Shown: positions 631 through 59,051, numbered from the stretch's first letter. The stretch: 64,000 bases of DNA from Bacteroidales bacterium (GCA_045627385.1 JAZQNO010000025.1:81997-145996); one strand, 5' to 3'. The notes: a model not told the origin generated them from the letters alone. Numbers and translations are program-made.

Positions 631-640
631 TTTAAATTTG

Positions 641-3719: not shown

Positions 3720-3752
3720 TTACGTATGATAAATTGGTTTTGAATTGTGACG

Positions 3753-3935: not shown

Positions 3936-4013
3936 CCCCTGCACTCCGATGTCATTTCAGCGGAAAAGTCTCGATGTGCACGTTAAGAGGAAATTTTTCA
4001 ATACCTAATTATT

Positions 4014-6502: not shown

Positions 6503-6505
6503 CAT

Positions 6506-8232: not shown

Positions 8233-9335
8233 AACAAGAAGACAAGAAGGCATCCAAAAAGATTCGACTGATTCCCAAGGGACTCAGCCGCCGTTTTTCC
8301 CGGACCGAAACCCAAGAGGTGCCGGCCCAGGTGGCCATTGTCGGCGGTGGACCTGCCGGTATGGAGGCTGCCAGCGTGCTGGCCCGCGAAGGCTGTCAGG
8401 TGCTGCTTTTCGAAGCCCGGCATGACCTGGCCGAAAACATTTTGAACAAACATCGTCTGTTTCCCGATTTTTCCACTTCCAACGAATTGTCATACAGGCT
8501 GATATCCGGCCTTGACAATCCTTTGGTCAAAGTGTTGCCCGATACGGAAATCGTGCATGTGGCCAAGATGGATGTGGGCGATTGGTGCCTGACCGACAAC
8601 AAGGGTGAAAAATATCATGTGGCCGCTGTGCTGCTGGCTTCCGGTTATCAGGTCTTCGATGCCCGCCGCAAAGAGGAACTGGGTTACGGCATCTATCCCG
8701 GCGTGATGACCTCGCTGGAACTGGAGTCCTGCCTGAAGGAACACCGGCTGCTCACTCCGCTCCGTGAAGATCCGAAACGCATTGTATTTCTGCAATGTGT
8801 GGGCTCCCGCGATGAAAAAGTGGGCAACAACTACTGCTCGAAAGTATGCTGTGTGACGGCTGTCAAACAGGCCATAGAGGCCAAGAGACTGCTGCCCGAC
8901 GCCGAAGTGTACCTCTTTTACATGGACCTCCGCATGTGGGGCAAAGGTTTCGAAGAGCTCTACCGCAGCGCTCAGGAACAGTACAACATCCGTTTCGTGC
9001 GCGGCCGCATTTCCGAGGCATCCGGAACCTTCGACAACAAGATTCAGATAAAGGCCGAAGATACCTTGTTGGGACAGCCGCTCAAACTGATTGCCGATCT
9101 GCTGGTGCTGATGGTGGGCATGGAACCTTCCTGCGGCACGCGCAATCTGGCCCAGTGTTGCGGCATTTCGGGCGATTACGGCTTTGTCCGTACGGCCGGT
9201 CCCCATCTGGACGACAATCTGACCGGCGAGCAGGGCCTTTTCGTGGCCGGTACCTGCAAGCGCCCGATGACCATTCAGGACACCATTCACGATGCCCGTT
9301 CGGCCGCTTTGGAAATCATCAACTACCTGTCATAA
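8229..9335 (+). CDS. short HdrA-like FAD/Fe-S flavoprotein
   Basis: 368 aa with VAIVGGGPAGMEAAS (FAD fold) and the CSKVCCVTA motif typical of HdrA. It has an ATGA overlap with the hdrB-like gene. Confidence 0.8.
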   Translation: MKQEDKKASKKIRLIPKGLSRRFSRTETQEVPAQVAIVGGGPAGMEAASVLAREGCQVLLFEARHDLAENILNKHRLFPDFSTSNELSYRLISGLDNPLVKVLPDTEIVHVAKMDVGDWCLTDNKGEKYHVAAVLLASGYQVFDARRKEELGYGIYPGVMTSLELESCLKEHRLLTPLREDPKRIVFLQCVGSRDEKVGNNYCSKVCCVTAVKQAIEAKRLLPDAEVYLFYMDLRMWGKGFEELYRSAQEQYNIRFVRGRISEASGTFDNKIQIKAEDTLLGQPLKLIADLLVLMVGMEPSCGTRNLAQCCGISGDYGFVRTAGPHLDDNLTGEQGLFVAGTCKRPMTIQDTIHDARSAALEIINYLS

Positions 9336-9341
9336 GCGAGT

Positions 9342-9668
9342 ATGCCCGATTTCGGATTCAAAATATCGAAACCACGCAGCATCGAGGTCAGCGAACCTGA
9401 CATCCGCATGCGGCAGTTGGAGGAAATGGAGCCCAGTCTCCGCCGCTGCATGAACTGCGGTTCGTGTGCGGCCACCTGCTCGGCCGGACAGTTCGTCGAA
9501 TTCAACATCCGCCGCATCCAGAACCTCTACCGTTGGGGACAGTATGCCCAACTGGAGGAAGAACTTCAGAAATGCATGCTGTGCGGAAAGTGTACGCTTG
9601 TCTGCCCGAGAGGCGTCAACCTCAGACATCTCATCATCAGCATGCGTGCCGTTTTAGCAGACAAATGA
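9342..9668 (+). CDS. small HdrC-like 2x[4Fe-4S] ferredoxin
   Basis: 108 aa with CMNCGSCAATC and CMLCGKCTLVCP. Confidence 0.8.
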   Translation: MPDFGFKISKPRSIEVSEPDIRMRQLEEMEPSLRRCMNCGSCAATCSAGQFVEFNIRRIQNLYRWGQYAQLEEELQKCMLCGKCTLVCPRGVNLRHLIISMRAVLADK

Positions 9669-9669
9669 T

Positions 9670-11448: not shown

Positions 11449-11451
11449 GCT

Positions 11452-12249
11452 ATGAAACGGCTGGATGGAAAGAATGTCGTCATCACCGGCGCCTCGTCGG
11501 GCATCGGATTGGCATTGGCCAAAGCCTTTGCCGGGCGCGGGGCCAATGTCCTGCTGGCCGCCCGTCGCGAAGACAAGTTGCGGGAAGCCTGCGAAGCAAT
11601 TGCCCGGATGGGTGCCGGCGGTCTCGTGACATACGAAACGGTGGATCTGGCCTCGGAAGAATCTGTTCGGAATCTGTCCGAAAGGCTGCTGAAACGTTTC
11701 GAAGGTCAGCGTCTCGACTATTTGGTCTTGAATGCCGGCATGTCGCAGCGGGCCTTGGCTTTGGACACCTCTTACGAAGTGGACCGCGAACTGATGCAGG
11801 TCAATTTCCTGTCGCCCGTTCTGCTGACCAAGTGTCTCAAACCTTTGTTGCTGTCGGGCTGCCGGCTGGCTGTGACCAGTTCCATTTCCGGCTTGTTCGG
11901 CTTTCCTCTCCGTTCGTCTTATTGCGCTTCCAAATCGGCTCTTTTGGGCTTTTTCGAGGCGCTGGAACTCGAATATCCCCCCATCGGCGTCACCTTCCTC
12001 ATCCCCGGACGCATTCAGACCGACATCAGTCTCAGCGCCCGTCTGGCCGATGGAAAGGCCTACGGACAGATGGATCCCGGCCAGGCCAACGGCATGAAGG
12101 TGGACCGTTGCGCGAAAATTGCTCTGAGAGCCATCCTGAAAGGTCGTCACCGCCGTCTGATCGGTGGAAGCGAACTCTTGATGGTGTATATCCGAAAATA
12201 CATTCCTTGTCTGTTTTACCGTCTGGCACGGAAAGTGTCAGCCAAATGA
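11452..12249 (+). CDS. SDR-family oxidoreductase (candidate 3-keto-capnine/ketosphinganine-type reductase, by context only)
   Basis: 265 aa with TGASSGIG and the YCASK catalytic YxxxK. It starts 3 nt after the previous gene. Confidence 0.85.
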   Translation: MKRLDGKNVVITGASSGIGLALAKAFAGRGANVLLAARREDKLREACEAIARMGAGGLVTYETVDLASEESVRNLSERLLKRFEGQRLDYLVLNAGMSQRALALDTSYEVDRELMQVNFLSPVLLTKCLKPLLLSGCRLAVTSSISGLFGFPLRSSYCASKSALLGFFEALELEYPPIGVTFLIPGRIQTDISLSARLADGKAYGQMDPGQANGMKVDRCAKIALRAILKGRHRRLIGGSELLMVYIRKYIPCLFYRLARKVSAK

Positions 12250-12258
12250 CCAAATACG

Positions 12259-13320
12259 ATGAAAGAAAAGATTATCAGTGGAATACAACAGGTAGGCATC
12301 GGTGTGGCCGATGTGATGGAGGCCATGGCCTGGTACAACCGCATCTTCGGTTTCGACGTGAAAGTCTTCGATGACGAAGGCGTTGCCGAACGCATGTTGC
12401 CCTATACAGCAGGAAAACCTCAGCCACGTCGGGCCATGCTGATGTACAATCTGCGCGGAGGCGGCGGTTTTGAAATATGGCAGCCCAAAGAACGCGAACT
12501 CAACTGGCCGGCCCAGGAAATTTCAGTGGGCGATCTCGGCATTTATGCCTGCAAAATCAAGTCGCCTGACATCTGTGCTTCTTTCAGCCATCTGAAGGCT
12601 GCCGGAGTGTCCATTCTGAATGAACCAATCAGAAACATCGAAGGAAGAATGCATTTCTATATGCGCGATCCTTACGGCAATCTCTTCGATATCGAAGAAG
12701 ACGATTTCGTGGCCGTTCCCGAAAAGAAAGCCTTCGGAGGCGTGAACGGCGTGCTGGTCGGCGTGTCCGACATGGAGCGCTCCATTGCTTTCTATTCGTC
12801 TCTTCTGGCCTACGACAGGGTGGTGGCCGACCGCAGCGGCATCTTCGAAGACCTGAAGGAACTTCCCGGCGGTCTGGGCCGCATGCGCCGCGTCGTGCTG
12901 CGCCCTTCCAAGGCTCCAGAAGGTCCCTTCAGCCAGCTGATGGGGCCCTCCTGCATCGAACTGATTCAGAGTCTCGACACCCAAGCTTCAAAAATATTTG
13001 AAAATCGGCTTTGGGGTGACCCGGGATTTATCCATCTTTGCTTCGACATACGCAACATGGAGTGCATCCGTCAGGAAGCGGAGGCGCTGGGCCATCCTTT
13101 CGTCTGCGACGGTGGGGCGGATTTCGACATGGGCGATGCCAACGGCCATTTCACTTATGTGGAAGATCCCGACGGAATGCTCATCGAATTTGTGGAGACC
13201 TTCAAAGTGCCCATTCTGAAAAAGTGGGGCCTGTACATACGTCTGGCCAAGCGGGACGATCGCAAACCGCTTCCTTTCTGGCTCATTAAAGCACTCCGGT
13301 TCATGCGCGTAAAACTTTGA
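12259..13320 (+). CDS. VOC (glyoxalase/bleomycin-resistance/dioxygenase fold) family protein, two-module
   Basis: 353 aa with two similar modules beginning GIQQVGIGVADVMEAMAWYNRIFGF and GVNGVLVGVSDMERSIAFYSSLLAY. Confidence 0.65.
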   Translation: MKEKIISGIQQVGIGVADVMEAMAWYNRIFGFDVKVFDDEGVAERMLPYTAGKPQPRRAMLMYNLRGGGGFEIWQPKERELNWPAQEISVGDLGIYACKIKSPDICASFSHLKAAGVSILNEPIRNIEGRMHFYMRDPYGNLFDIEEDDFVAVPEKKAFGGVNGVLVGVSDMERSIAFYSSLLAYDRVVADRSGIFEDLKELPGGLGRMRRVVLRPSKAPEGPFSQLMGPSCIELIQSLDTQASKIFENRLWGDPGFIHLCFDIRNMECIRQEAEALGHPFVCDGGADFDMGDANGHFTYVEDPDGMLIEFVETFKVPILKKWGLYIRLAKRDDRKPLPFWLIKALRFMRVKL

Positions 13321-14195
13321 TGATGAGGCTATTCAAAAAGATTTGTCTTGGGGTGCCACTGCTCTGGTGCCTGATGTCCTGCCAGTGTGAGAAGGCGTCC
13401 TTTGTTCCGACCGACAGCTATGCCCAAGTGCTCGAATATGCACGGAACGACGGCCGTTCCGTCCTCTTGCTGTTGTATGACCGCCATACGTCCAAACTCT
13501 CTCAGATAGAAAACTTCGTTTGGGGAGACGAACTCTTGGCCGCTGAGATTCAGGCAGACTTTCTTTGCGTTTCCGGACAGATCCACAGTGAAGCCTGGCG
13601 TCCCTTCTGCCAGGAAAAAGGCATATACAAAGGTCAGGTGCTGCTGTTTCTAAGTCCTGACGGTCAGATTGTCAACGACTTGAAACTGGAAAACGAAGCG
13701 GGTCCGGATGAGTCCGGACTGTCGGCCAGCCGCAAGCGGCTGGCCCGCCAGTGCCGTTTGGCCCAGGCCTTTGCAGAACCCGATGATTCCCTCTTTTTCT
13801 CCTCCGACAATTGGAAAGACATCAACGCCTCTATGCTGCGCATTGACGGGCTGCTTTTCCATCGCATCGTCCAGGCCAAGGAAATGCTGAAAGCCCGTTA
13901 TCCCGAAACCTATCCCATCGTGTTCGACTATGCCATGGCCTGTGCGGCCGTCTCTTTGGTCAGCCACGAAGAAGGACAGTTGCCCTATCTGGATCCGGCT
14001 CTCGACAAAGCCTATTATTATGTGGTCGACAGTATGGACATTGATTTTCAAGGCCGCTACCGCCTGTATGGAGACGTCAACAAAGCTTTCGGCCTGGGGC
14101 AATACGAAAAGGCCCGCCGTGTCGCACAGCAGGCCTTTGACAAGGGAGATATTCAAGAAAACGAGTTCCGCCAGCTGATGGCGAAACTGGAATAG
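13320..14195 (+). CDS. lipoprotein with thioredoxin-like N-terminal region (no CxxC), function unknown
   Basis: It has a signal peptide with lipobox LMSC. The ATG overlaps the VOC stop (TGATG). The track start at 13317 is a TTG. Confidence 0.7.
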   Translation: MMRLFKKICLGVPLLWCLMSCQCEKASFVPTDSYAQVLEYARNDGRSVLLLLYDRHTSKLSQIENFVWGDELLAAEIQADFLCVSGQIHSEAWRPFCQEKGIYKGQVLLFLSPDGQIVNDLKLENEAGPDESGLSASRKRLARQCRLAQAFAEPDDSLFFSSDNWKDINASMLRIDGLLFHRIVQAKEMLKARYPETYPIVFDYAMACAAVSLVSHEEGQLPYLDPALDKAYYYVVDSMDIDFQGRYRLYGDVNKAFGLGQYEKARRVAQQAFDKGDIQENEFRQLMAKLE

Positions 14196-15038
14196 TCACT
14201 TTTTCTTGCTCAGGGGCGAATCCGGCTCCTTCAGCATCATTTTGTACTCTGTACGTCGGGTCAGTCCGGGCATAGCCACCCGGAAGAAATTGACCGTAAT
14301 CTTCCCCAACGGTGTCAGCACCATCTGATTGCGCTTCTGACGCAGTCCGCGCAACATCAGTTGCGCGCACCTTTCGGCGCTCATCATCTTGTCTTCTTCG
14401 CGGGGCGTCTTGCCTTGGGGCGAGCCGTCGGCCGTGAGAGCGGCCAAACGGACATTGGAGGCTGTGAAGTTGGGCGCGAATGTCATGACGTGCAGCCCGT
14501 CATAGAGATGTTCGGCACGCAGCGTTTCCAGAAAACCGTTCAGCGCGAATTTCGATGAAGAATAGCCGGTGCGGCAGGGCAGACCTACAAAACCGGCAAC
14601 GGATGTCACGCCCACAATGGAGCCCTTGCTTTTCAGCAGTTCCGGCAGCGCATACTTGCAGCAGTAGACGCAACCCCAGAAATTCACGTCCATCAGCCGA
14701 TGCAGCACTGAGAGATCCACATCGTCGAAAGCGGCCCGCATCGAAACACCGGCATTGCAGATGAGAATGTCGATTTTTCCGAAACGCGACACGCAGGCTT
14801 CCATCAGCTTTTGGCAGTCCTCTTCGACGGAAACGTCGGTGGGGACGGCCAGCACTTCCGTGCAGCCTTCCTCCGCCAATTCCTGTTTCAGGGCTTCCAA
14901 TTTGTCTGCAGAACGCGCGGCAACCACCAGTTTGGCTCCACATGATGCGAACACTTTGGCCGTTGCCCGACCGATGCCCGAAGAGGCACCGGTGACAATG
15001 ACCACTTTGTCTTTAGGAGAATCAGAGACCTTTGCCAT
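14196..15038 (-). CDS. SDR-family oxidoreductase
   Basis: [11 protein letters not shown] and YSSSK are present. I prefer the ATG at 15036-15038 ([20 protein letters not shown]) over the track start at 15107. Its stop abuts the stop of the convergent lipoprotein gene with no spacer. Confidence 0.85.
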
Positions 15039-18000
15039 GACAGTTTTTGAATTTTTTACCGCTGCCGCAAGGACAAGGATCGTTGCGGCCCACTTTCTGC
15101 TCCACACGGACAGGCTCGAGTTTCTGTGGCTCGCGTTGTGCCTGAGGCGCTCCCGGCTGCTGACGTCCGAATTCGTCTTTTCGGGTCCGCAGCTGGCTGT
15201 AGTCGTTCCGGCGCTGTTCGGCGGCCTGTCTCACATGGTCGGGCTCCTGCGTGTTGATCTGTCCGTGCATCAGCACAGAAATGCTCTTGCGGTTCATGGA
15301 GTCGACCATATTCTTGAACAGATTGTATGATTCCAGTTTGTAAATGAGCAAGGGATCCTTCTGTTCGTAGCTGGCGTTCTGGACCGAGGTGCGCAAATCG
15401 TCCAATTCGCGCAGGTTCTCTTTCCAAGCCTCGTCCAGCATATGCAGCAGGATGGCTTTTTCGAAACTCTTGACCACGTCTTTCGAATGGCTTTCGGCGG
15501 CATCCTTCAGGTTGCAGGGAATCTGGTAGATGCGCTTTCCGTCCGAAATGGGCACGACGATGTTCTGGTAGCGGGCGCCTTCGCGTTCGTAGACCTGCTG
15601 GATGACCGGATCGGCGATGGCCGACATCTTTTCGGTCTTGCGCTTGTAGTTTTCCAGAGCCTGAGAAGTCAGGATTTCGGCGTTGTCGTCGGTGCGGTTC
15701 TTGAAGAATTCCTCGTCGCTGAAAGGCACTTCCATGGCGAAATACTTCATCATGTTGAACTTCAGACCTTCAAAATCCTTGGTGTCCTCGGCTTCTTCCA
15801 CCAGGCCGTGGATGGTGTCGTAGGTGGTGTTGGCGATTTCCATGCCGATGCGTTCGCCCATCACGGCGTGACGGCGCTTGGTGTAGATGACTTCGCGCTG
15901 GTTGTTCATCACGTCGTCGTATTCCAACAGACGTTTGCGGATGCCGAAGTTGTTTTCTTCGACCTTCTTCTGGGCGCGCTCGATGGCCTTGGAAATCATG
16001 GAGTTCTCAATCATCTCACCTTCTTCCAGTCCCATGCGGTCCATGATGGATGTGATGCGTTCGCTGCCGAACAGACGCATCAGGTTGTCCTGTAGGGAAA
16101 CATAGAACACCGACGAACCCGGGTCGCCCTGACGTCCGCTTCGTCCGCGCAGCTGGCGGTCGACACGGCGGCTTTCGTGGCGTTCGGTACCGATGATGGC
16201 CAGACCGCCCAGTTCCTTCACTTCGGGCGTGAGTTTGATGTCGGTACCGCGGCCTGCCATGTTGGTGGCAATGGTTACGGTGCCCTTCTCGCCGGCGTGC
16301 GCGACGATTTCGGCTTCGCGCTGGTGCAACTTGGCGTTCAGCACGTTGTGCTTGATCTTGCGCTGGGTGAGCATGCGGCTCAACAGTTCGGATATCTCCA
16401 CCGAAGTGGTGCCGACCAGTACCGGACGCCCTTCGGCGTTGAGGCGTTCGATTTCCTCGATGATGGCTTTGTATTTCTCACGCTGTGTCTTGTAGAGACG
16501 GTCGTCCATGTCGACACGGGCGATGGGGCGGTTGGTGGGAATGACGACGACGTCGAGCTTGTAGATGTCCCAAAACTCGCCGGCTTCCGTTTCGGCCGTA
16601 CCGGTCATGCCCGACAGCTTGTGATACATGCGGAAGTAGTTCTGCAGCGTGATGGTGGCGAAGGTCTGGGTGGCCGCTTCCACTTTGACACGTTCCTTGG
16701 CTTCGATGGCCTGGTGCAGTCCGTCGCTGTAGCGGCGGCCTTCCATAATGCGGCCCGTCTGCTCGTCCACAATCTTCACCTGGTTGTCGATGACCACGTA
16801 TTCGTCGTCGCGGTCAAACAGACAGTAGGCTTTCAGCAGCTGGGTCACGGTGTGGATGCGGTCGCTCTTGATGGAGAAATTGTTGAGCAGCTCGTCCTTC
16901 TTGTTGAGCCTTTCCTCTTCGCTCAGCGGCTCGTTGTCGAGTTCGGCCAGCTGGGCCGCGATATCGGGAATGACGAAGAATTCGGGGTCTTCCGTATCGC
17001 CGGTGATGAAATCCACACCCTTGTCGGTGAGCTCGATGGTGCGGTTCTTCTCGTCGATGACGAAATACAGCGGATCGGTGACCACATGCATCTCCTGGTT
17101 GTTGTTCTGCATATAGAACTCTTCGGTCTTCTGCATGCTGGCCTTGATGCCCTGTTCGCTCAGGAATTTGATGAGCGCCTTGTTTTTGGGCATGGCCTTG
17201 TGGCTGCGGTAAAGCAGCAGGGAACCTTCCTGCTGTTCCTTGGGGTCCTCACTGGACATCTTCTTCTTGGCTTCCACCAGCAGTTTGGTGGCCATTTCGC
17301 GTTGCACGTTCACGACGCGTTCCACTTTGGGACGGTATTCTTCGAACAGCTGGTCTTCGCCTTTCGGCACGGGACCTGAAATAATCAGAGGCGTACGGGC
17401 GTCGTCGATGAGCACCGAGTCGACCTCGTCCACGATGGCGTAGTTGTGGCGGCGCTGCACCAGGTCGAGCGGGCTGCCGGCCATATTGTCACGCAGATAG
17501 TCGAAACCGAATTCGTTGTTGGTGCCGAAGGTGATGTCGGCCATATAGGCCTGACGGCGTTCTTCGCTGTTGGGGCGGTATTTGTCGATGCAGTCGACGC
17601 TCAGTCCGTGGAACATATAGAGCGGTCCCATCCACTCGGAGTCACGTTTCGACAGGTAATCGTTGACGGTCACCACATGGACGCCGTTGCCGGTGAGGGC
17701 GTTCAGGAAAACGGGCAGGGTAGCCACCAGCGTCTTTCCTTCACCGGTGGCCATTTCGGCGATTTTGCCCTGATGCAGGACGACGCCGCCGAAAAGCTGC
17801 ACATCGTAGTGGACCATATCCCATTTGATTTCGTTGCCGCCGGCAATCCAATGGTTCTGCCAGATGGCCTTGTCGCCTTCGATGCGCACGAAATCGTGTC
17901 GGGCGGCCAGGTCACGGTCAAACTGGGTGGCCGTCACTTCGACAAATTCGTTCTCGGCGAAACGGCGGGCTGTGTCTTTGACAATGGAGAAAACCTCCGG

Positions 18001-50173: not shown

Positions 50174-50206
50174 GAAAGACGTTTGCCCATACCGGAAGTT
50201 TCGGAC

Positions 50207-50242
50207 GCCTTTCCTGCATCATGGTGGGGAAGGCTTTTTTTT
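50207..50242 (+). terminator. attenuator terminator upstream of ilvD
   Basis: GCCTTTCC (50207-50214) pairs with GGGAAGGC (within 50226-50234) and is followed by T8. The 5' arm can alternatively pair with AGGAAAGACG at 50172-50181. Confidence 0.7.
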
Positions 50243-50266
50243 AATGATTCAATTCGGAATAAGGAT

Positions 50267-52099
50267 ATGAAAATCGCATTGAGAAGCTCGGTTTGTACGG
50301 AAGGTCGCCGTATGGCTGCCGCGAGAGCCCTTTGGGCTGCCAATGGTATGAAGAAAGAACAGGTGGGCAAACCCATCATTGCTGTGGTCAATTCGTTCAC
50401 CCAGTTTGTTCCCGGTCACGTGCACCTGCACGAAATCGGTCAGGAAGTGAAGGCCGAGATCGAACGCCTGGGCTGCTTCGCCGCCGAGTTCGACACCATC
50501 GCCATCGACGACGGCATCGCCATGGGCCACGACGGCATGCTCTATTCGCTGCCCAGCCGCGACATCATCGCCGACAGCGTCGAATATATGGTCAATGCCC
50601 ACAAGGCCGATGCCATGGTGTGCATCAGCAACTGCGACAAAATCACCCCAGGCATGCTGATGGCCGCCATGAGACTCAACATCCCCACCATATTCGTCAG
50701 CGGAGGCCCGATGGAGGCCGGCGAGCTGGACGGAGGCCATCTGGACCTCATCGACGCGATGATCCAGTCGGCCGACCAAAGCGTTTCCGACGCTCAGATG
50801 GCCCGTGTGGAGGCCAGCGCTTGTCCGGGCTGCGGCTGCTGCTCGGGCATGTTCACCGCCAATTCCATGAACTGCCTCAACGAGGCGTTGGGTATGGCTC
50901 TTCCCGGCAACGGCACCATCCTGGCCGACCATGTCAACCGCCGGAAACTTTTCCTCAAGGCGGCCCGTCAGATTGTGAAGAATACCTTCGCCTATTACGA
51001 AGACGGTGACGAGTCGGTTCTGCCGCGTTCCATCGCCACCCGCGAAGCCTTCCTCAACGCCATGACGCTCGACATCGCCATGGGCGGTTCCACCAACACC
51101 GTGCTGCATCTGCTGGCCATCGCCCACGAGGCTGGAGTGGATTTCAGCATGGACGACATCGACATGCTTTCACGTCGGGTGCCCTGCCTGTGCAAGGTGG
51201 CTCCCAATACCAAACTGTTCCACGTGCAGGACGTCAACCGCGCCGGAGGCATCCATTCCATCCTGGGCGAACTGGCCAAGGCCGGACTCATTGAAACCGG
51301 AGTGAAACGGGTCGACGGTCAGACACTGGCCAAAGATCTGGAAGACTATTCCCTGTCGTCGCCGAAGGTGCTGGAGGAAGCCAAAGACTTCTATCTGAGC
51401 GCTCCTTCCCACCGGTTCAATATGAGTTTAGGCTCGCAGGATTCCCGTTTCGACAGTCTGGACACCGACCGCGCAAAGGGCTGCATCCGCGACATGGACC
51501 ACGCCTACACCAAGGACGGCGGTCTGGCCGTGCTCAAGGGCAACATCGCCCTCAACGGCTGTGTGGTCAAGACCGCGGGTGTGGACGAGTCCATCTGGAA
51601 ATTCAGCGGTCCCGCCAAAGTGTTCCATTCACAGGAAGACGCCTGCGAGGGCATCCTCGACGGCAGCGTCCGCTCGGGCGATGTGGTGCTGGTCATTTTC
51701 GAAGGCCCGAAAGGCGGTCCCGGCATGCAGGAAATGCTGTATCCCACCTCATACATCAAGTCGCGCCATCTGGGCAAAGAGTGCGCCCTCATCACCGACG
51801 GCCGCTTTTCAGGCGGCACCTCGGGCCTGTCCATCGGCCACGTTTCTCCCGAAGCCGCTTCAGGCGGAGCCATCGGACTGGTCCGCAACGGAGACATCAT
51901 CGACATCGACATCCCGGCCCGCAGCATCAGCGTGCGCCTGAGCGACGAAGCGCTGGCCCGTCGCCGCCGCGAGGAAGAGGCCAAAGGCCGTCTGGCCTTC
52001 AAGCCCGTCCGCGACCGTCAGGTCTCCCAATCATTGAAAGCCTACGCACAGGCCGTTTCGTCGGCCGATCTGGGTGCAGTCAGAATCATCGAAGACTAA
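50267..52099 (+). CDS. ilvD: dihydroxy-acid dehydratase
   Basis: 610 aa from the ATG at 50267 (MKIALRSS), with the Fe-S ligand block CDKITPGM. The track ORF start at 50183 runs through the attenuator. Confidence 0.95.
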
Positions 52100-52111
52100 T
52101 CAACTACCGAC

Positions 52112-53815
52112 ATGTCAGAAAGAATCAACGGAGCGGAAGCCTTGATGCGCTCCTTCAAGGAAGAGAATGTCAGAACCATCTTCGGATACCCGGGCGGATT
52201 CATCATCCCCGTATTCGATGCCTTATACTCCTATCAGAAAGAATTCGACTGCATTCTGAGCCGTCACGAGCAGGGTGCCGTCCATGCCGCCCAGGGCTAT
52301 GCCCGCGTGACGGGCGAACCGGGCGTGGTCATCGTCACTTCCGGACCGGCCGCCACCAACATCGTCACCGGCGCCGCCGACGCCATGCTCGACAGCACGC
52401 CTCTGGTCATCATCACCGGACAGTCCATCGTGGCCCAACTGGGTACCGACAGCTTCCAGGAAACCGACGTCATCGGCATCACCCAGCCGGTCACCAAATG
52501 GAGCTACCAGATACGCCGTGCGGAAGACCTGCCATGGGCGGTCGCCCGCGCCTTCTACATCGCCCGTGAAGGCCGTCCCGGACCGGTGGTGCTCGACCTG
52601 ACCAAGGATGCCCAGACACAGCTGCTCGACTTCGAATACAAGAAATGCCGCTTCATTCGCAGCTACCAGCCCTATCCGGCTCTCAACCGGACCGAAGTGG
52701 CCGAGGCCGCCCGCCTCATCAACGAATCGGAGAAGCCTTTGGCCGTAGTGGGGCAGGGCGTCATGCTGGGCCACGCCGAACAGGAACTCTATGCCTTTTT
52801 GGAAAAAGCCGGCATCCCGGCTGCTTCCACCCTCATGGGCCTCTCCATCATGTCCGACGATTATCCGCTCAACATGGGCATGGTGGGCATGCACGGCAAT
52901 GTGGCTCCCAACCGCATGACCAACCGGTGCGACGTGCTCATCGCCATCGGCATGCGCTTCTCCGACCGCGTGACCGGCGACATCCGCTCCTACGCTCCCC
53001 AGGCGAAAATCATCCATTTCGACATAGATCCCTCCGAACTCAACAAGAATGTCAAAGTCGACCAGACGGTGCTGGGCGACGTGAAGGCTTCGCTGCCGGC
53101 CGTGACCGCATTGCTGAAGCCGGCCAGACACACCGACTGGATAGAAAGTTTCAAACCTTTCCGCCAGCAGGAAGACCGCGAAGTCATCCAGCCCGAACTC
53201 CATCCTTCGGCTCAGCCGATAACGATGGCCGAGGCGGTGAAATGCGTGTCGGACCAGTCCGGTTCCAAGACCGTTCTCGTGGCCGATGTGGGACAGAACG
53301 AAATGATATCGGCCCGCTATTTCAGCGCGGGCCCCGGACGCCAGTTCATCGCCTCTGGCGGTCTGGGTACCATGGGCTTCTGCCTGCCTGCCGCCGTAGG
53401 TGCCGCATTGGGCGCTCCCGATGCCGAAATCTATGCCGTCTGCGGTGACGGCGGTTTCCAGATGACGGTTCAGGAACTGGGCACCATCATGCAGTATCAG
53501 CTGCCGGTGAAGATGCTCGTGCTCAACAACAGCTATCTGGGCATGGTACGCCAGTGGCAGGAACTTTTCTGGGACGAACGCTATTCGTCCACCCGCATGC
53601 AGAATCCCGATTTTGTCCGCCTGGCCTCGGCCTACGGCATAACCGGCCGTTCGGTAAGCCGCAGAGAAGAACTTTCCGAGGCTGTCGGCGAGATGATTGC
53701 CCACAAGGGCCCCTATCTGCTCGAAGTCAAGGTCGAGCAAAAGGGGTTGGTCTATCCGATGATTCCGGCCGGAAAACCCATCACCGACATCATCATGGGC
53801 AAAGAAACCAAGTAA
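52112..53815 (+). CDS. ilvB: acetolactate synthase large subunit (biosynthetic)
   Basis: 567 aa, a TPP enzyme with the GDGGFQM block. Confidence 0.93.
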   Translation: MSERINGAEALMRSFKEENVRTIFGYPGGFIIPVFDALYSYQKEFDCILSRHEQGAVHAAQGYARVTGEPGVVIVTSGPAATNIVTGAADAMLDSTPLVIITGQSIVAQLGTDSFQETDVIGITQPVTKWSYQIRRAEDLPWAVARAFYIAREGRPGPVVLDLTKDAQTQLLDFEYKKCRFIRSYQPYPALNRTEVAEAARLINESEKPLAVVGQGVMLGHAEQELYAFLEKAGIPAASTLMGLSIMSDDYPLNMGMVGMHGNVAPNRMTNRCDVLIAIGMRFSDRVTGDIRSYAPQAKIIHFDIDPSELNKNVKVDQTVLGDVKASLPAVTALLKPARHTDWIESFKPFRQQEDREVIQPELHPSAQPITMAEAVKCVSDQSGSKTVLVADVGQNEMISARYFSAGPGRQFIASGGLGTMGFCLPAAVGAALGAPDAEIYAVCGDGGFQMTVQELGTIMQYQLPVKMLVLNNSYLGMVRQWQELFWDERYSSTRMQNPDFVRLASAYGITGRSVSRREELSEAVGEMIAHKGPYLLEVKVEQKGLVYPMIPAGKPITDIIMGKETK

Positions 53816-53834
53816 CAGCAAACGATTCAAGGAT

Positions 53835-54389
53835 ATGGAAAAGCAATTGTATACCATCAACGTGTATTCCGAAAATACGGTCGGTATCCTCAATCAGGTG
53901 ACCAATGTCTTCACGCGCCGTCAGGTCAACATCGAGAGCCTGACCGTGTCGCGCTCGTCGATTCCCGGAGTGCATAAATACACCATTACCGCCGAGACCG
54001 ACGAGGAGACCATTTCCAAGATGGTGCACCAGATCGAGCGCCGCATCGATGTGCTGAAGGCGTTCTATTACGTCGACGATGAAATCATTTTCCAGGAAAT
54101 CGCCCTGTACAAGATTTCCACCGACGTGGTGCTCGAACACGGGGCGCTGGAGGAAATCGTGCGCCGCTACAATGCGCGCATTCTCGAGCTGAACCGCACC
54201 TACACGGTCATCGAGCAGACGGGTCATGTGGAGGAAATCGAGCGTCTCTATCAGGAACTGCAACCGCTTGGCATCCTGCAGTTTGTGCGCTCCGGACGCA
54301 TCTCTATCACCAAATCGCCCATCGAGCGCCTGAACGAATTCCTCGAAGAAATGGAGTCCAAGCGCCAGGTCTGCGAACAACAGCCGTAA
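53835..54389 (+). CDS. ilvN: acetolactate synthase small (regulatory) subunit
   Basis: 184 aa with the N-terminal ACT domain YTINVYSENTVGILNQVTNVFTRR. Confidence 0.9.
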   Translation: MEKQLYTINVYSENTVGILNQVTNVFTRRQVNIESLTVSRSSIPGVHKYTITAETDEETISKMVHQIERRIDVLKAFYYVDDEIIFQEIALYKISTDVVLEHGALEEIVRRYNARILELNRTYTVIEQTGHVEEIERLYQELQPLGILQFVRSGRISITKSPIERLNEFLEEMESKRQVCEQQP

Positions 54390-54504
54390 CGGCATAGGTG
54401 AGTTGGGCTGTAAAAGGTTTGTTTGCTGACTTCTTAGCTGAAATGTCTGTCCTGTAATAATGGCGCATTATTTGTATGTTTTGATTACCGGTAGTGAATT
54501 ATAA

Positions 54505-54693
54505 GATTCGATTGGTAATGATTGTGTTACTGCATCGATGTCTGAATTAATAATACCACCAGGCAGAAAAGCAAAATTGAAAATCAATATTTCACCAAAT
54601 GCTGAAGGCGATTTTACGTGGTGTGTAGACATTAAAGGTCTTGATGATGTATCTCTTCAAATTTTTATATCGGCGACAGTGGTTGGTTTATGA
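54505..54693 (+). pseudogene. possible 3' remnant of a DUF1573-like gene
   Basis: The open frame reads DSIGNDCVTASMSELIIPPGRKAKLKINISPNAEGDFTWCVDIKGLDDVSLQIFISATVVGL*. It is bounded upstream by an in-frame TAA. The pattern resembles the C-terminal half of DUF1573 domains, judged from memory. Confidence 0.3.
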
Positions 54694-54721
54694 TATAAGT
54701 TATACTTCATAAAATTAGCAT

Positions 54722-55060
54722 ATGAAAAGACTCCTATTTTCAATTCTATGTACAACAGTGATTATGGCTTTTTTATTCCTGATTCTATGTGTTGTGAGGA
54801 ATAGAACTATTTCTCCAATCGTAATGGTCAATGTCGAGGCATTGGGAGATTACGAATATCCTCACCAGAATAATCGTGGTACTTATGGTGGTATAGATGA
54901 TGATATGTGGCTGATATCAGAATGCTCTTTGCCCAGAGGCGAAGCCGAAAGTTGGTTTATTCTTCATGGGGGAGATTATAGCTGTTCGGGTTGGTGTTGT
55001 GACAGTTGTCATGAAACCTGGTATTGCGGCAATGGTGATATTGTTACTAATTGCAATTAA
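54722..55060 (+). CDS. signal-anchored Cys-rich peptide with NVEAL(G) motif (NVEALA-family-like), copy 1
   Basis: 112 aa with an N-terminal TM segment, NVEALG at residues 37-42 and a C-terminal region with 7 Cys ending GWCCDSCHETWYCGNGDIVTNCN. Confidence 0.85.
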   Translation: MKRLLFSILCTTVIMAFLFLILCVVRNRTISPIVMVNVEALGDYEYPHQNNRGTYGGIDDDMWLISECSLPRGEAESWFILHGGDYSCSGWCCDSCHETWYCGNGDIVTNCN

Positions 55061-55068
55061 TTCAATGA
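55014..55068. repeat. 55-nt block 100% identical to 56609-56663 (peptide 3' end + junction + lipoprotein ATG)
   Basis: By direct comparison, both copies read AAACCTGGTATTGCGGCAATGGTGATATTGTTACTAATTGCAATTAATTCAATGA. Confidence 0.9.
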
Positions 55069-56252
55069 GAAACACGTCCTATTTATTCTTGTTGACTGGC
55101 GTGGTTTTGTCATTGTCGTCCTGTCGGCACCGGGAGGTAGATGACAAAGTGTATATGGCAGACTCGACTGGAATCGTATTCGACTATGATCTGGAAAAGG
55201 CTGCTGCAAATGATTCGATGATCTCTATAAGTCAGATTGTCGATTCTGTCGTTTACATTCCTTTGGAATTTGACATTCTTGCCTCCTTGAGACCCGACTA
55301 CCTGATGACTGTCGAGACTGACGAGGGCTTTGTCGTTTCTTCCAATTCCACGCAGGGTTTCAATGGTGTTTTTCAGTTCGACAAGAACGGCAGATACCAA
55401 AAGACACTTGTCGGAAAAGGCCATGGCCACAACGAATTGGTCCCGTATTTCTACAATTGGTCATACAATGAGACTGAAAAACTGATTGTTTTGAGTGGAA
55501 GGGGTTATTACTGCGAACTCAATGCAGAAACCGGAGAAGTGAGCATGCTGAAAAAGTCAGAATATGCCTATCAGACCATGATTCTTGTTGAAAACAAGCG
55601 GTTTCTGGCTCTTCCTGTGGAGGATGATCCCCAGATTCCATTTCTTGTGCTGACTGACTCGGACGGGAGCACTGTCGCGAAATATTTCACTAAACATAAG
55701 AAAAACGCCTACGCCGAAACTCCGCAATCTGGTTGGAGTCCGACCGAACATCGTATATTGGATCAGGACAAGCAAGGCCGACCGTTGTTCAAGGATATGT
55801 ACAATGATACCGTCTATGCATGGTCGGACAAAGGTCTTCAGCCGGCTTTCTGCCTGAATGCCGGAGACCTGAATCCCAAAGTGAAAGATGCTGGAAAGAG
55901 CGTAAGAAAAGGACAACAGGTGTTTGTCTATCATGTGGCCACAGTTGGAAAGTATCTTCTATGCTTTTATCATTACAACGGCAATCGGGCGGAAAGCGTT
56001 TTCGATATGGAAACTGGAAAACTCGTTGCCAATGAGCGATTGCCCATCCATGCAAGGGGTGTTGATTTGTGGAAGACAAGGTCGCCCCATTTTGTGTCTT
56101 TGGATACTCCGACGGGAAAACGTATCCTGGTCGGTGTCACATGGGCTTCAGGTGATTGCCTGTATGGAGTGGTGAACCCGTCGGACGTTTCGGATTTTCT
56201 TGAAGTGGATGCCGATTCCAACCCGGTCCTGGTGAAAATGTATCTGAACTGA
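55065..56252 (+). CDS. beta-propeller-type lipoprotein (6-bladed propeller / BF3164-like family, from memory), copy 1
   Basis: 395 aa from the ATG at 55065. It has the lipoprotein signal LSLSSC and a GKGHGHNEL block. It starts 4 nt after the peptide stop. Confidence 0.85.
   Translation: MRNTSYLFLLTGVVLSLSSCRHREVDDKVYMADSTGIVFDYDLEKAAANDSMISISQIVDSVVYIPLEFDILASLRPDYLMTVETDEGFVVSSNSTQGFNGVFQFDKNGRYQKTLVGKGHGHNELVPYFYNWSYNETEKLIVLSGRGYYCELNAETGEVSMLKKSEYAYQTMILVENKRFLALPVEDDPQIPFLVLTDSDGSTVAKYFTKHKKNAYAETPQSGWSPTEHRILDQDKQGRPLFKDMYNDTVYAWSDKGLQPAFCLNAGDLNPKVKDAGKSVRKGQQVFVYHVATVGKYLLCFYHYNGNRAESVFDMETGKLVANERLPIHARGVDLWKTRSPHFVSLDTPTGKRILVGVTWASGDCLYGVVNPSDVSDFLEVDADSNPVLVKMYLN
56159..56248. 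repeat. 90-nt block identical except 1 nt to 57779-57868 (3' ends of the two lipoprotein genes)
   Basis: It encodes LYGVVNPSDVSDFLEVDADSNPVLVKMYL in both copies. The single difference is G/A in AACCC[G/A]GTCC. Confidence 0.9.
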
Positions 56253-56310
56253 GATTACTCTGCTAAAATTCTTGAGCGGACAAAACTACAATTTCTAAAA
56301 ATTAAATGTT

Positions 56311-56655
56311 ATGAAAAATAAACTTATTTCTATTATTTGCGCAACAATGATTGTGTCCTGTTTGTTTCTCATCATATGTATTGTGAGAAATAAAATGATA
56401 TCACCAATGGTAATTGCCAACGTCGAGGCATTGGGAGATTACGAATATCCTCATCAAAACAATCAAGGAACTTGTGGTTATGGTGGCATCGATTATGATA
56501 TGTGGTTGATTTCAGAGTGTTCTTTGCCCCAAAGTGTAGCAATTGAGTGGTATAATAATAACCGCGGCAAGCACGGATGTATGGGTTGGTGTTGTGAGAG
56601 TTGCTCTCAAACCTGGTATTGCGGCAATGGTGATATTGTTACTAATTGCAATTAA
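56311..56655 (+). CDS. signal-anchored Cys-rich peptide with NVEAL(G) motif, copy 2
   Basis: 114 aa with the same architecture as copy 1. It has 8 Cys after the NVEALG motif and the identical tail TWYCGNGDIVTNCN. Confidence 0.85.
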   Translation: MKNKLISIICATMIVSCLFLIICIVRNKMISPMVIANVEALGDYEYPHQNNQGTCGYGGIDYDMWLISECSLPQSVAIEWYNNNRGKHGCMGWCCESCSQTWYCGNGDIVTNCN

Positions 56656-56663
56656 TTCAATGA
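56609..56663. repeat. partner of the 55-nt identical block at 55014-55068
   Basis: Established by direct comparison of the two sequences. Confidence 0.9.
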
Positions 56664-57862
56664 AAAAGACTTTCTGTTTGCCCCTGATGATTGGTGCAGT
56701 GCTGTCATTGCCGTCCTGTCGGCACCGGGAGGCTGACAAAGCGGTGTCTGGTGCAGCTGTTGGGCAGTCCGTTGCCGGCATCTGCTCTTTTGACTTGTCG
56801 TCCGCCGTCGTGAAAGACACATCCGTTTTAATCAACGGCATTGTCGATTCCTTTGAATACATACCCTTGGAATTTAATTTGGACGCCTCTTTGCAACTGG
56901 AATATCTGATGACCGCAGAAACGGAAAACGGACTGCTGGTTTCCAACAATTGTGCCAGGTGGTTCAGAGGCGTTTTTCTGTTTGGCAAATCTGGAGATTT
57001 TAAATCAACGCTCATCGGATTGGGCCATGGGCACAACGAATTGTCACCAGACTTCTACGGGTGGGCATACGACAGGTACAAAGGAGAATTGCTGATGCTT
57101 GGCCGAGGCATTTGTTATGTCTTCAACTGCAGGTCGAATGAAGGCAGGCTTCTCAAAGCGGATGACGCTTTTATGGATATCGTCCCGACTGACGGAGACG
57201 TGTATCTGGTCAGGCCGGCAAGCGCCTCAAAGGAAGGAAACCCCTTCCTGAAACTGGTCAGCGGTAAGGGAACCGCAGTCAAGGAATTCCGGTATGAAAA
57301 CAAGATGTCTGTCTACTACGAGGTGCCCACGGCGGATTTCGGTCCGAACGAGCATCGTCTGTTGAAACAAGGAGGAAGTGGAGAAGCCTTGTTCAAAGAC
57401 ATGTTCAACGACACAATCTATGTGCTCGAACACGATGTCCTTCATCCGCGTTATTGTCTGGAAACGGGAAGTAAGCGTCCGAATGTCAAGGATGTGTTGA
57501 ATAAGAAAAAGAAAGCCGGGCAAATTTACCTCTCCGATATCGCGACAGCTGGCGATTATCTGCTATGTCAGTACGAATACGCAGGAGAACCTTTCAATCA
57601 ACTGGTTTTTGAAATCTCCACCGGAAAGGTGGTGGCCGCATCCCATTTCGGGCTGGACATGCGTGGGGCCGGAACGGTTCACGCCTTCAGAAACAGGTTC
57701 CCTTTCCAGTTGCAGACTCCCACCGGACATGTCATCTGGATGGGTATGACAGCTGTCGGAGAAAGCATCCTGTATGGAGTGGTGAACCCGTCGGACGTTT
57801 CGGATTTTCTTGAAGTGGATGCCGATTCCAACCCAGTCCTGGTGAAAATGTATCTGAAATAA
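56660..57862 (+). CDS. beta-propeller-type lipoprotein, copy 2
   Basis: 400 aa from the ATG at 56660. It has the lipoprotein signal LSLPSC and a GLGHGHNEL block. It starts 4 nt after the peptide stop. Confidence 0.85.
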   Translation: MKKTFCLPLMIGAVLSLPSCRHREADKAVSGAAVGQSVAGICSFDLSSAVVKDTSVLINGIVDSFEYIPLEFNLDASLQLEYLMTAETENGLLVSNNCARWFRGVFLFGKSGDFKSTLIGLGHGHNELSPDFYGWAYDRYKGELLMLGRGICYVFNCRSNEGRLLKADDAFMDIVPTDGDVYLVRPASASKEGNPFLKLVSGKGTAVKEFRYENKMSVYYEVPTADFGPNEHRLLKQGGSGEALFKDMFNDTIYVLEHDVLHPRYCLETGSKRPNVKDVLNKKKKAGQIYLSDIATAGDYLLCQYEYAGEPFNQLVFEISTGKVVAASHFGLDMRGAGTVHAFRNRFPFQLQTPTGHVIWMGMTAVGESILYGVVNPSDVSDFLEVDADSNPVLVKMYLK

Positions 57863-57868
57863 TTATTT
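57779..57868. repeat. partner of the 90-nt block at 56159-56248
   Basis: Established by direct comparison of the two sequences. Confidence 0.9.
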
Positions 57869-57889
57869 GGCGTTGTCGGAGACATGTTG

Positions 57890-57897
57890 TATCTTTG
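57890..57897 (+). promoter_or_regulatory. -7 box TATCTTTG upstream of ilvC
   Basis: It matches TAnnTTTG and lies 52 nt upstream of the ilvC ATG. Confidence 0.45.
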
Positions 57898-57948
57898 CAT
57901 AAAATTTGAATATTTAGCGTAAGAATCGCATATAAATTAAATTTTATC

Positions 57949-58992
57949 ATGGCAAAAATGAATTTTGGCGGTGTCATTGAAAATGTTGTGACCCGCGAAG
58001 AGTTTACACTGGCTAAGGCCCGCGAAATTTTGAAAGACGAAACCATTGCAGTCATCGGTTACGGTGTGCAGGGTCCCGGTCAGTCTCAGAACCTGCGTGA
58101 CAACGGTTTTCGCGTGATTGTCGGTCAGCGTCCCGGCAAGACCTACGACAAGGCTGTCGCCGACGGTTGGAAACCCGGCGAAACGCTGTTCGGCATTGAA
58201 GAAGCCTGCCAGAAGGGCAGCATCATCATGTGTCTGCTTTCCGACGCGGCCGTCATGTCGGTATGGCCCACCATCAAACCTTATCTGACCGCCGGAAAGG
58301 CACTTTATTTCTCCCACGGTTTCGCCATCACTTGGAACGACCGCACCGGTTGCGTTCCTCCCGCAGATATCGACGTCATCATGGTGGCCCCCAAGGGATC
58401 GGGCACCTCGCTTCGCACGATGTTCCTCGAAGGCCGTGGCCTGAATTCCTCCTATGCCGTCTATCAGGATGTGACCGGCAAGGCTATGGACCGCACCCTG
58501 GCACTGGGTATCGGCATCGGCTCGGGTTATATGTTCGAGACCACATTCCAGCGCGAGGCCACTTCCGACCTTACCGGCGAACGCGGTTCTCTGATGGGTG
58601 CCATCCAGGGACTGCTGCTGGCCCAGTACGAAGTGCTCCGCGAGAACGGACACACTCCCTCGGAAGCTTTCAACGAGACCGTCGAAGAACTCACCCAGAG
58701 CCTTGGACCGCTCTTCGCCCAGAAAGGCATGGACTGGATGTACGCCAACTGCTCGACCACTGCCCAGCGCGGCGCTCTCGACTGGATGGGTCCCTTCCAC
58801 GACGCCATCAAGCCGGTTGTCGAAAAACTCTATGCCAGCGTCAAGTGCGGCAATGAAGCACAGATATCCATCGACAGCAATTCCAAGCCCGATTATCGTG
58901 TCGGCCTTGAGAAGGAACTGCAGGCTCTCCGCGAAAGCGAGATGTGGCAGGCCGGCGCTGTCGTCCGCAAACTCCGTCCCGAAAACAACTGA
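57949..58992 (+). CDS. ilvC: ketol-acid reductoisomerase (class I)
   Basis: 347 aa with the GYGVQGPGQSQNLRDNG nucleotide fold. Confidence 0.95.
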   Translation: MAKMNFGGVIENVVTREEFTLAKAREILKDETIAVIGYGVQGPGQSQNLRDNGFRVIVGQRPGKTYDKAVADGWKPGETLFGIEEACQKGSIIMCLLSDAAVMSVWPTIKPYLTAGKALYFSHGFAITWNDRTGCVPPADIDVIMVAPKGSGTSLRTMFLEGRGLNSSYAVYQDVTGKAMDRTLALGIGIGSGYMFETTFQREATSDLTGERGSLMGAIQGLLLAQYEVLRENGHTPSEAFNETVEELTQSLGPLFAQKGMDWMYANCSTTAQRGALDWMGPFHDAIKPVVEKLYASVKCGNEAQISIDSNSKPDYRVGLEKELQALRESEMWQAGAVVRKLRPENN

Positions 58993-59006
58993 TTTAACGA
59001 ATTTTG

Positions 59007-59051
59007 CAGCCGGTACAGCTTTTTTATGGGTTGTACCGGCTGTTTTGTTTT
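59007..59051 (+). terminator. rho-independent terminator after ilvC
   Basis: A perfect 11-bp stem CAGCCGGTACA...TGTACCGGCTG is followed by TTTTGTTTT. Confidence 0.8.

Follow-up and report, generated by a model that had tools for sequence, protein, structure and literature searches.

Introduction

Among the closest described systems to the locus reported here are the bacteroidetocins (class IIf; PMC6671954, PMC8546649), small ribosomal cysteine peptides of the Bacteroidota. They are made with a 15-residue double-glycine leader, have a mature form of about 42 residues with four cysteines, and are encoded with a C39 ABC exporter and a transmembrane (TM) protein and without an immunity gene (PMC6671954). 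Bacteroides has no general disulfide machinery, and bacteroidetocin loci carry thiol oxidoreductases (PMC6671954). In Bacteroidales, the neighbor of a toxin gene can be a gene for a resistant surface orthologue or for a lipoprotein that gives immunity, and strains that do not make the toxin may retain this neighbor (PMC11901371). Here we analyze a stretch of 64,000 nucleotides (nt) from a Bacteroidales bacterium (GCA_045627385.1 JAZQNO010000025.1:81997-145996; hereafter the window), in which two paralogous small genes on the + strand, peptide copy 1 (112 residues, 54722..55060) and peptide copy 2 (114 residues, 56311..56655), are each followed by a gene for a β-propeller lipoprotein. We describe their gene structure, family conservation, coding constraint, leader–core modularity, synteny and accessory gene set, and propose from sequence comparison that the two genes probably encode exported, disulfide-rich peptides with a leader of the NVEALA type.

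Like the bacteroidetocins, the window peptides are small ribosomal cysteine peptides of the Bacteroidota with a leader, whose cleavage is here predicted; the linked thiol-oxidoreductase genes of the bacteroidetocins are paralleled here only in relatives of the window peptides. The two groups are set apart by description, as the window leader is a Sec-type hydrophobic NVEALA leader, the core is larger and anionic with six to eight cysteines, and a propeller lipoprotein is the partner. The likeness to double-glycine-leader peptides (TIGR04149, TIGR01847) runs through the leaders of six relatives, whereas the window copies themselves have neither a double-glycine leader nor an adjacent radical SAM maturase. 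With Pfam PF14055 (NVEALA) the window copies share a hydrophobic segment followed by L.(A/E)N(I/V)EAL(A/T)..E, and six-bladed propeller lipoprotein genes are adjacent in both; in contrast to the short and highly variable classical tail, the window copies carry a conserved domain of 55–70 residues with six to eight cysteines. The placement of an antagonist gene (here putative) beside a surface protein or lipoprotein gene recalls BSAP with its resistant-receptor orthologue and BcdI/BcpI, and non-producers of BSAP can keep only the protective gene (PMC11901371), which may be compared with the orphan propeller gene described below; unlike the window peptides, BSAPs are large MACPF proteins. The window propellers match the fold of 4raa (BF0058 of B. 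fragilis) and of DUF5128 and NHL propellers; 4raa itself is uncharacterised, and no function is transferable from these matches.

Two intact genes encode paralogous cysteine-rich peptides

Both open reading frames (ORFs) are present with exactly the translations given in the original prediction, a sequence-based note that had drawn attention to the pair, and the copies are 68% identical (BLASTP E = 9e-59). They have in common an N-terminal hydrophobic helix, the segment NVEALGDYEYPHQNN, the motif DMWLISECSLP and the identical tail TWYCGNGDIVTNCN, all as that note had described. The seven positionally conserved cysteines that it counted are likewise found downstream of the leader in both copies; an eighth, in GTCG, occurs in copy 2 only. 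In copy 1, C55 and G56 are gone through an in-frame 6-nt deletion, which makes it the sole family member without them, and copy 1 may be impaired by the absence of this near-invariant first cysteine. The NVEALG motif and the core lie at 54830-54847 and 54878-55030 in copy 1, and the TM helix, NVEALG and the eight-cysteine core at 56317-56394, 56419-56436 and 56467-56625 in copy 2. In the AlphaFold2 (AF2) model of the peptide, a TM helix (residues 3-28) and a low-confidence NVEALA helix and linker precede the core, which is predicted with confidence as a compact β-β-α-β domain (predicted local distance difference test, pLDDT, 82-90). A search of the peptide sequence against PDB chains returned no significant match.

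Over the whole gene, the ratio of nonsynonymous to synonymous substitution rates (dN/dS) is 0.24 between copy 1 and copy 2 and 0.15 between copy 2 and its homologue P0001, with synonymous sites saturated. Within residues 46-71, the proportions of synonymous (pS) and nonsynonymous (pN) differences between the copies are 0.77 and 0.04. The peptide ORFs behave as real genes under purifying selection.

Neither peptide sequence is present in a collection of 15 billion proteins, whereas both propellers and ilvC (P0028) of the same 162,576-nt NCBI contig are, so the peptide genes appear never to have been called in the public record. Mechanically called ORFs of 428 residues (54966-56252) and 439 residues (56543-57862) lengthen the propeller genes upstream, so that they overlap, in a different frame, the 3′ ends of the peptide genes. 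Such upstream extensions could be a source of mis-annotation and conceal peptide genes. The true start of the first propeller gene, 55065, is confirmed by an exact match to P0024; for the second we infer 56660 from the matching junction and the 400-residue length of P0026.

The peptides belong to a rare six-cysteine core family

A word-indexed search found one homologue of the window peptides, P0001, and an exhaustive HMMER search of 1.84 billion representatives gave 23 hits, of which about 20 are genuine clusters, 82-118 residues long. With a profile made from a 10-sequence subset of the 22-sequence family alignment, two loci were located in 185,579 species genomes. A metagenome scan gave seven loci, and a scan of viral contigs gave no relatives. 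Seven positions are invariant in the 22-sequence alignment (G53, T54, C70, W93, C94, C95 and C98 in copy 2 numbering), and C55, G56, Y103, C104, N37, E39, A40 and L41 are at least 90% conserved. The resulting framework, GTCG...C...WCC(D/E)SC...YCG, holds six cysteines, which are complete in copy 2 and number five in copy 1, where the first is missing; two extra cysteines are found in the window copies, P0001 and P0002. No model in Pfam or NCBIfam covers this core, and by these searches the family, which is defined in this analysis, is rare. The expectation of a kept cysteine framework in genes free of pseudogenisation was borne out, with the framework invariant or nearly so across the 22 sequences and the ORFs under purifying selection. 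Membership in TIGR04101 (CCGSCS) was considered and rejected, as the likeness of WCCESCS is local only (21 vs 28 bits, over 24 residues, in copy 2 only).

The same core occurs behind double-glycine leaders

Six peptides (P0023 and five metagenomic ones, L018-L023) carry the same core behind double-glycine (GG) leaders of the pattern M-K-K...(E/Q)(M/L)..(V/I).GG, with no hydrophobic segment; examples of their N-termini are MKFSELKNSSNILSSNEMKNIKGG, MKKSFNELRVRNILSSQQMMLVKGG and MKKKRINLSVIKEIMSVKDLKNTLGG. A hidden Markov model (HMM) built from NVEALA-type cores only recovers these GG-type peptides at 46-65 bits (E <= 3e-7, Z = 1.84e9), and they still score 14-30 bits when the WCC..YCG motif that was used to find them is removed. 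The GG-type N-termini match only double-glycine leader models (TIGR04149, TIGR01847, leader_Chryseo and others), with scores below the cut-offs, so the leader assignment is pattern-based. GG-type loci carry thioredoxin, redoxin and VKOR genes, which, by analogy with the bacteroidetocin loci, are a hallmark of disulfide-bonded peptide loci in a phylum without general disulfide machinery (PMC6671954). Because the same core stands behind GG leaders with redox genes linked, it appears to be a module that works as a predicted exported, oxidised peptide, and the leader-plus-cysteine-core logic of the original prediction is strongly supported. The window copies themselves have a TM-like helix and no GG leader, and no C39 ABC exporter was found in the window by tblastn and an ORF survey.

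The contig of P0023, from a metagenome-assembled genome of the Prevotellaceae (L002), also carries a radical SAM gene (303-1499), a DDE transposase gene (5008-6516) and a 97-residue ORF (8986-9279). This ORF, which lies upstream of P0023 and starts FPLYTQLDAMDCWPT, was considered as a C39 peptidase remnant and dropped for want of Pfam support; the short L002 fragment gave no Pfam match. A gene for a TonB-dependent-receptor-like outer-membrane protein (CarboxypepD_reg/Plug) lies directly upstream of GG-type peptides in two independent loci, at 6683-8962 in L002 and at 2468-5089 in the metagenomic locus L019.

A leader-plus-core architecture is also what a ribosomally synthesized and post-translationally modified peptide (RiPP) would have, and the original prediction had named RiPP precursors among its comparisons. 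Instead of disulfide bonds alone, the core would then carry an enzymatic modification, for example from a radical SAM enzyme or by glycosylation through a Wzy_C-type membrane protein. Of the leader models, TIGR04149, an rSAM-modified RiPP leader, fits the GG-type leaders best, although below its cut-off; a radical SAM gene is present on the L002 contig, and a Wzy_C/TPR protein belongs to the conserved NVEALA system described below. However, the L002 radical SAM gene is 8 kb off, beyond the transposase gene, no modifying enzyme occurs in the island that holds the window genes or beside any NVEALA-type peptide, and the compact core fold and even cysteine count are typical of disulfides. We regard an enzymatically modified core as very improbable, and this part of the original prediction gained no support.

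NVEALA-type peptide genes lie in a gene set conserved between two genomes

Against Pfam PF14055, copy 2 scores 20.4 bits and copy 1 10.2 bits, both below the gathering threshold of 27, whereas 16 of the 22 family members match at E <= 0.1 (best 1.4e-11). The HMM search that the original prediction had proposed therefore reaches the relatives and leaves the window copies sub-threshold. A leader-only profile of the N-terminal 45 residues, window copies included, collects 734 NVEALA clusters, most of them with PF14055, and both copies have the homologous N-terminus of a hydrophobic segment followed by the motif, here NVEALG; the NVEALA-like N-terminus of the original prediction is supported. The window copies, with 112 and 114 residues and tails of 70-72, exceed the size of classical NVEALA proteins, which have about 60-86 residues (mostly 72-86) and tails of 16-43.

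In a comparison of 29 classical NVEALA proteins from this set, the leaders are conserved, with 55% identity on average between pairs, and the tails, at 25%, are unrelated. The leader is essentially free of cysteine, and the tails have at least two cysteines in 27 of the 29 proteins and an even number in 25. The residue after NVEAL is always small in these proteins, with the motif ending A-L-(A/T), and it is A, T, G or S in the WCCDSC family; the A-L-(small) ending satisfies the −3/−1 rule of type I signal peptidases. Some classical sequences, such as P0030 and P0068, read NVEALAGGE, and the hydrophobic spacing of LSD.SLANVEALA.. resembles, by eye only, a double-glycine leader helix if cut two residues after ALA.

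An orthologous gene set with 37-58% amino acid identity is found in two distant genomes, those of Bacteroides sp. 224 (L006, which carries the family member P0005; 6410-18555) and Dysgonomonas mossii (L025, which carries a classical NVEALA gene; 17-16243). This conserved NVEALA system comprises a discoidin-domain (F5/8C) protein, a CxxC/CGC-DUF1573 lipoprotein, a Peptidase_S26 paralogue, a Wzy_C/TPR membrane protein, a resistance-nodulation-division (RND) adaptor, an RND pump and an OEP protein, together with the peptide gene followed by one or more propeller lipoprotein genes (Pfam DUF5128, TolB_like, DUF4221). The S26 protein scores 97.5 bits against TIGR02227, for which the cut-off is 47. 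Dedicated S26 paralogues with single substrates are known in SipW, TraF and SodX, and Wzy_C is a domain of O-antigen ligases and O-oligosaccharyltransferases. At NVEALA-type loci, the upstream lipoprotein has GCTSC and SCGCT motifs plus the DUF1573 domain; selenocysteine (UGC) forms are known for DUF1573, consistent with a redox function.

The N-terminal helix of the window copies could also be a permanent anchor, in which case the peptides would be uncleaved type II signal-anchored inner-membrane proteins, with the periplasmic cysteine-rich domain and the propeller forming a structural or regulatory envelope module. The length of the hydrophobic segment (about 21 residues), the lack of small residues where it ends, the modeled helix over residues 3-28, the tight coupling of the peptide and lipoprotein genes, 4 nt apart, and the constant synteny would all suit such a module. 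Yet the same core sits behind non-hydrophobic double-glycine leaders, so anchoring is not needed for function; moreover, the hydrophobic regions of classical NVEALA proteins are short and signal-peptide-like, with the conserved A-L-(A/T) motif, and the conserved system includes a dedicated S26 peptidase. Retention of the uncleaved anchor seems to us quite unlikely.

A propeller lipoprotein gene accompanies the peptide gene

Propeller lipoprotein 1 (395 residues, 55065..56252, + strand, lipobox LSLSSC) is a 100% match to P0024, and propeller lipoprotein 2 (400 residues, 56660..57862, + strand, lipobox LSLPSC) is probably P0026, which has the same length and comes from the same contig as P0024. 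The two are 43% identical (BLASTP), their N-termini are MRNTSYLFLLTGVVLSLSSC and MKKTFCLPLMIGAVLSLPSC, with the lipobox read from the sequence, and the spacer from each peptide TAA to the lipoprotein ATG is 4 nt. Both exceed the gathering threshold of Pfam DUF5128 (22.9 bits), with 35.7 bits for propeller 1 and 27.6 bits for propeller 2. The AF2 model of propeller 1 is all-β (predicted template modeling score, pTM, 0.66), and Foldseek matches it best to 4raa (E = 6.8e-12) and then to NHL domains; a propeller profile searched against the PDB gives 4raa at E = 9.5e-10 and NHL domains at about 1e-4, and the single sequence of propeller 1 gave no significant match among PDB chains. The eukaryotic NHL domains of Brat and TRIM71 have RNA or protein ligands, and the fold match therefore points to no particular function.

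The propeller gene lies 3′ of the peptide gene in all eight NVEALA-type members with enough downstream sequence (both window copies, P0001, P0002, P0005, P0010, P0011 and P0022), and the propeller lipoprotein neighbors that had been anticipated are therefore real and recurrent. A link of the propeller to the NVEALA leader rather than to the core was considered, and it was weakened by the GG-type locus L018, in which a DUF5128 lipoprotein gene comes after the gene for a GG-leader peptide; the propeller can thus accompany the core itself. Propellers also occur on their own. Propeller 2 is the positional orthologue of an orphan propeller without a peptide gene in the related locus L014, and L024 has tandem propellers without an intervening peptide gene. 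These orphans resemble the retained immunity or resistant-receptor genes of Bacteroidales (PMC11901371), and by this analogy a cognate binding and protection role of the propeller is favored.

The exported, processed peptide could also be something other than a toxin. Signaling is one option, with the peptide serving, for instance, as a pheromone or as the ligand of a propeller receptor; extracellular binding or metal chelation is another. In support, the mature peptides are rich in aromatic residues and anionic, propellers of the NHL type serve as binding scaffolds, the TonB-dependent-receptor-like gene stands directly upstream of the GG-type peptides in L002 and L019, and peptide and propeller diversify together in tandem pairs. 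On the other hand, no linked sensor kinase or regulator occurs in any locus examined, the dedicated thioredoxin and VKOR genes suggest structural disulfides over free metal-binding thiols, and orphan propellers without a peptide gene fit protection better. We consider a non-toxin peptide of this kind unlikely.

The variable block is old and its flanks have been homogenized

A block between the conserved segments (type B in copy 1, 54935-54988; type A in copy 2, 56530-56583) does differ strongly between the copies, as the original prediction had noted, with 6 of 20 residues identical. Across genomes, copy 2 agrees with P0001 at 15 of 20 block residues and copy 1 with P0002 at 10 of 20, and a tree of the core forms the same pairs. 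Within a type, pS is 0.89 and pN 0.12, and dN/dS between the types is about 0.38, values on which positive selection on the block was rejected. Since the block types recur across genomes under purifying selection, they represent two old lineages and not a hypermutating segment, so the description of the block as hypervariable is not supported. With only two block types, no diversifying cassette is apparent, and without diversifying selection there is no evidence for the polymorphic-toxin logic that had been suggested.

The tail is identical between the window copies (9/9) and agrees at only 1-2 of 9 positions with P0001 and P0002; over codons 92-114, pS between the copies is 0.09. The tandem units are 57% identical overall, against which several tracts stand out. 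A 55-nt tract of perfect identity (55014..55068, + strand; counterpart about 56609-56663) spans the peptide tail, the stop codon, the 4-nt spacer and the lipoprotein start codon, and a 32-nt perfect-identity run covers NVEALGDYEYPHQ. The last 90 nt of propeller gene 1 (56159..56248, + strand) are 99% identical to 57769-57858 in propeller gene 2, with perfect-identity runs of 66 nt and 23 nt at the 3′ ends. Such runs in units of 57% overall identity indicate gene conversion between the tandem units. The 55-nt tract is likely a recombination substrate, and, as these alignments indicate, the conserved-variable-conserved appearance of the peptides is partly a product of gene conversion in the flanks.

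The same junction marks a boundary between related loci. Locus L001 has the order DUF1573, peptide, propeller and L014 the order HipA/HTH, propeller, with no peptide gene. Starting just ahead of the lipobox codons, the two share 99.2% identity, and their sequences upstream of that point are unrelated. Judged from this comparison, the peptide–propeller junction is a recombination point in nature. In L014 (3110-6163), a HipA/HTH toxin-antitoxin-like pair stands in place of the peptide and DUF1573 genes.

The cassettes form a low-GC island between ilv genes

The two tandem peptide-plus-propeller cassettes are the content of a low-GC island (54400..57930, + strand), with 33-50% GC vs about 56% in the flanks according to composition profiles. 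The island lies downstream of ilvD and ilvB and is flanked by ilvN (53835-54389, + strand) and ilvC (57949-58992, + strand), both assigned with Pfam. The ilvD-ilvB-ilvN-ilvC order (50183-58992) is broken by this 3.5-kb island. Locus L014 aligns with the window from 56831 through ilvC and beyond at 73.6% nucleotide identity, a level close to that between the genes of copy 2 and P0001 (77%). It follows that the cassette has long resided here and was not imported recently, and the propeller–ilvC adjacency is, on this alignment, ancestral.

Upstream of copy 1, a C-terminal remnant of a DUF1573-type lipoprotein gene (51 codons, 54538-54693, + strand) has stop codons upstream in frame and is 37% identical (E = 7e-11) to the C-terminus of the upstream gene of L001, itself a DUF1573 gene (53.9 bits). 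In relatives, the DUF1573 gene is full length, has CxxC and CGC motifs and precedes the peptide gene. A promoter motif of the Bacteroidetes −7 type, TATCTTTG (57890..57897, + strand), lies about 50 nt upstream of ilvC and is the only + strand instance inside the island; the TAnnTTTG motif is enriched across the window (30 matches vs 15.9 expected). A scan of the island for sigma-70 promoters and terminators gave results not above chance, and an Rfam scan of 48-60 kb gave no matches. A strong terminator-like hairpin is located 3′ of ilvC (59006-59043).

With the upstream DUF1573 gene truncated, the window cassettes could be satellite copies in decay that have ceased to be expressed or matured. 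No genes of the NVEALA system occur in the 64 kb, the first Cys-Gly, kept by all other family members, is lost in copy 1, no promoter motif was found before the peptide genes, and the close relative L014 has lost the peptide gene altogether. Nevertheless, all four genes, two for peptides and two for propellers, are intact, synonymous sites are saturated at a dN/dS of 0.15-0.24, co-transcription with the same-strand ilv genes is possible, and the machinery could lie outside the window. Decay is, in our view, an improbable account of the cassettes.

Proposed mechanism and its bearing on the NVEALA family

The steps given here for export, leader cleavage, disulfide bonding, antagonism and propeller function are inferred. 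Each small gene would encode a precursor from which a disulfide-rich peptide of about 55-70 residues is exported. Its N-terminal 45 residues would form a bipartite leader, with a hydrophobic Sec-type signal/anchor helix followed by an amphipathic L.(A/E)N(I/V)EAL(A/T/G/S)..(E/D) segment, and would carry the C-terminal domain across the inner membrane. The leader would be cut at or just past the A-L-(small) motif, likely by the dedicated S26 paralogue of complete systems. The six-cysteine core (eight cysteines in the window subgroup) would be oxidised to the β-β-α-β domain by dedicated thiol-disulfide proteins, in complete loci presumably the CxxC/CGC DUF1573 lipoprotein. The anionic, aromatic-rich product would then be released and act outside the cell, most likely as a receptor-targeting, bacteriocin-like antagonist, with the rapidly diverging NHL-type propeller as its cognate binding partner, either a self-protection factor or a resistant target allele. 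Only two satellite cassettes are present in the window, so that genes for maturation and export would have to be located elsewhere in the genome.

An exported, leader-processed and disulfide-bonded peptide, possibly antagonistic, with a cognate propeller lipoprotein, is the reading that we prefer, at roughly even confidence. Several observations weigh against it. On the peptide side, the hydrophobic helix of the window copies, at about 21 residues, looks like a signal anchor, the NVEALA motif lies 12-16 residues past the hydrophobic helix, a long distance for ordinary signal peptidase I, the cysteine count of copy 1 (7) is odd, and a fold search with the peptide model against the PDB found no relative (best E = 1.5). 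The mature peptides are strongly anionic (net −6 and −10), unlike most membrane-active bacteriocins. At the locus, the DUF1573 gene upstream of the window peptides is truncated, the −7 motif scan found no canonical promoter motif ahead of either peptide gene, and the 64-kb window has none of the maturation or export genes of the NVEALA system. Among the relatives, the GG-type leaders score 15.6-21.9 bits against a cut-off of 25, all sub-threshold, and no C39 ABC exporter was seen on the scanned GG-type contigs. Finally, we found no paper on NVEALA or DUF5128 in the literature searched, and, as bacteroidetocin producers have no immunity proteins (PMC6671954), an immunity role of the propeller has no direct peptide-toxin precedent in the phylum.

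A broader and more tentative proposal, on balance doubtful, is that the whole NVEALA family (at least 734 clusters, Bacteroidota) consists of Sec-dependent precursors of disulfide-rich secreted peptides, either bacteriocins or signals, served by the dedicated S26/CxxC-DUF1573/Wzy_C-TPR/discoidin/RND system, with propellers (DUF5128, TolB_like, DUF4221) as immunity or receptor partners. If so, the window peptides would reveal this link for the family, because a core of their type is interchangeable with double-glycine bacteriocin leaders.

NVEALA and the DUF5128, TolB_like and DUF4221 propeller families are large and are expanded in gut and environmental Bacteroidota. They are not known to have a published function, and the leader swap provides the first concrete functional handle on them. 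It is an argument for reading the NVEALA N-terminus as a leader for export and processing, and the tails as secreted peptides with disulfide bonds. Annotation misses such small genes, as both window peptides are absent from the protein collection though their neighbors are present. If true, the proposal would add a Sec-dependent route for peptide bacteriocins or signals in Bacteroidota, together with a new six-cysteine fold, and would name a defined gene set (S26, CxxC-DUF1573, Wzy_C/TPR, RND) in the culturable Dysgonomonas mossii and Bacteroides sp. 224.

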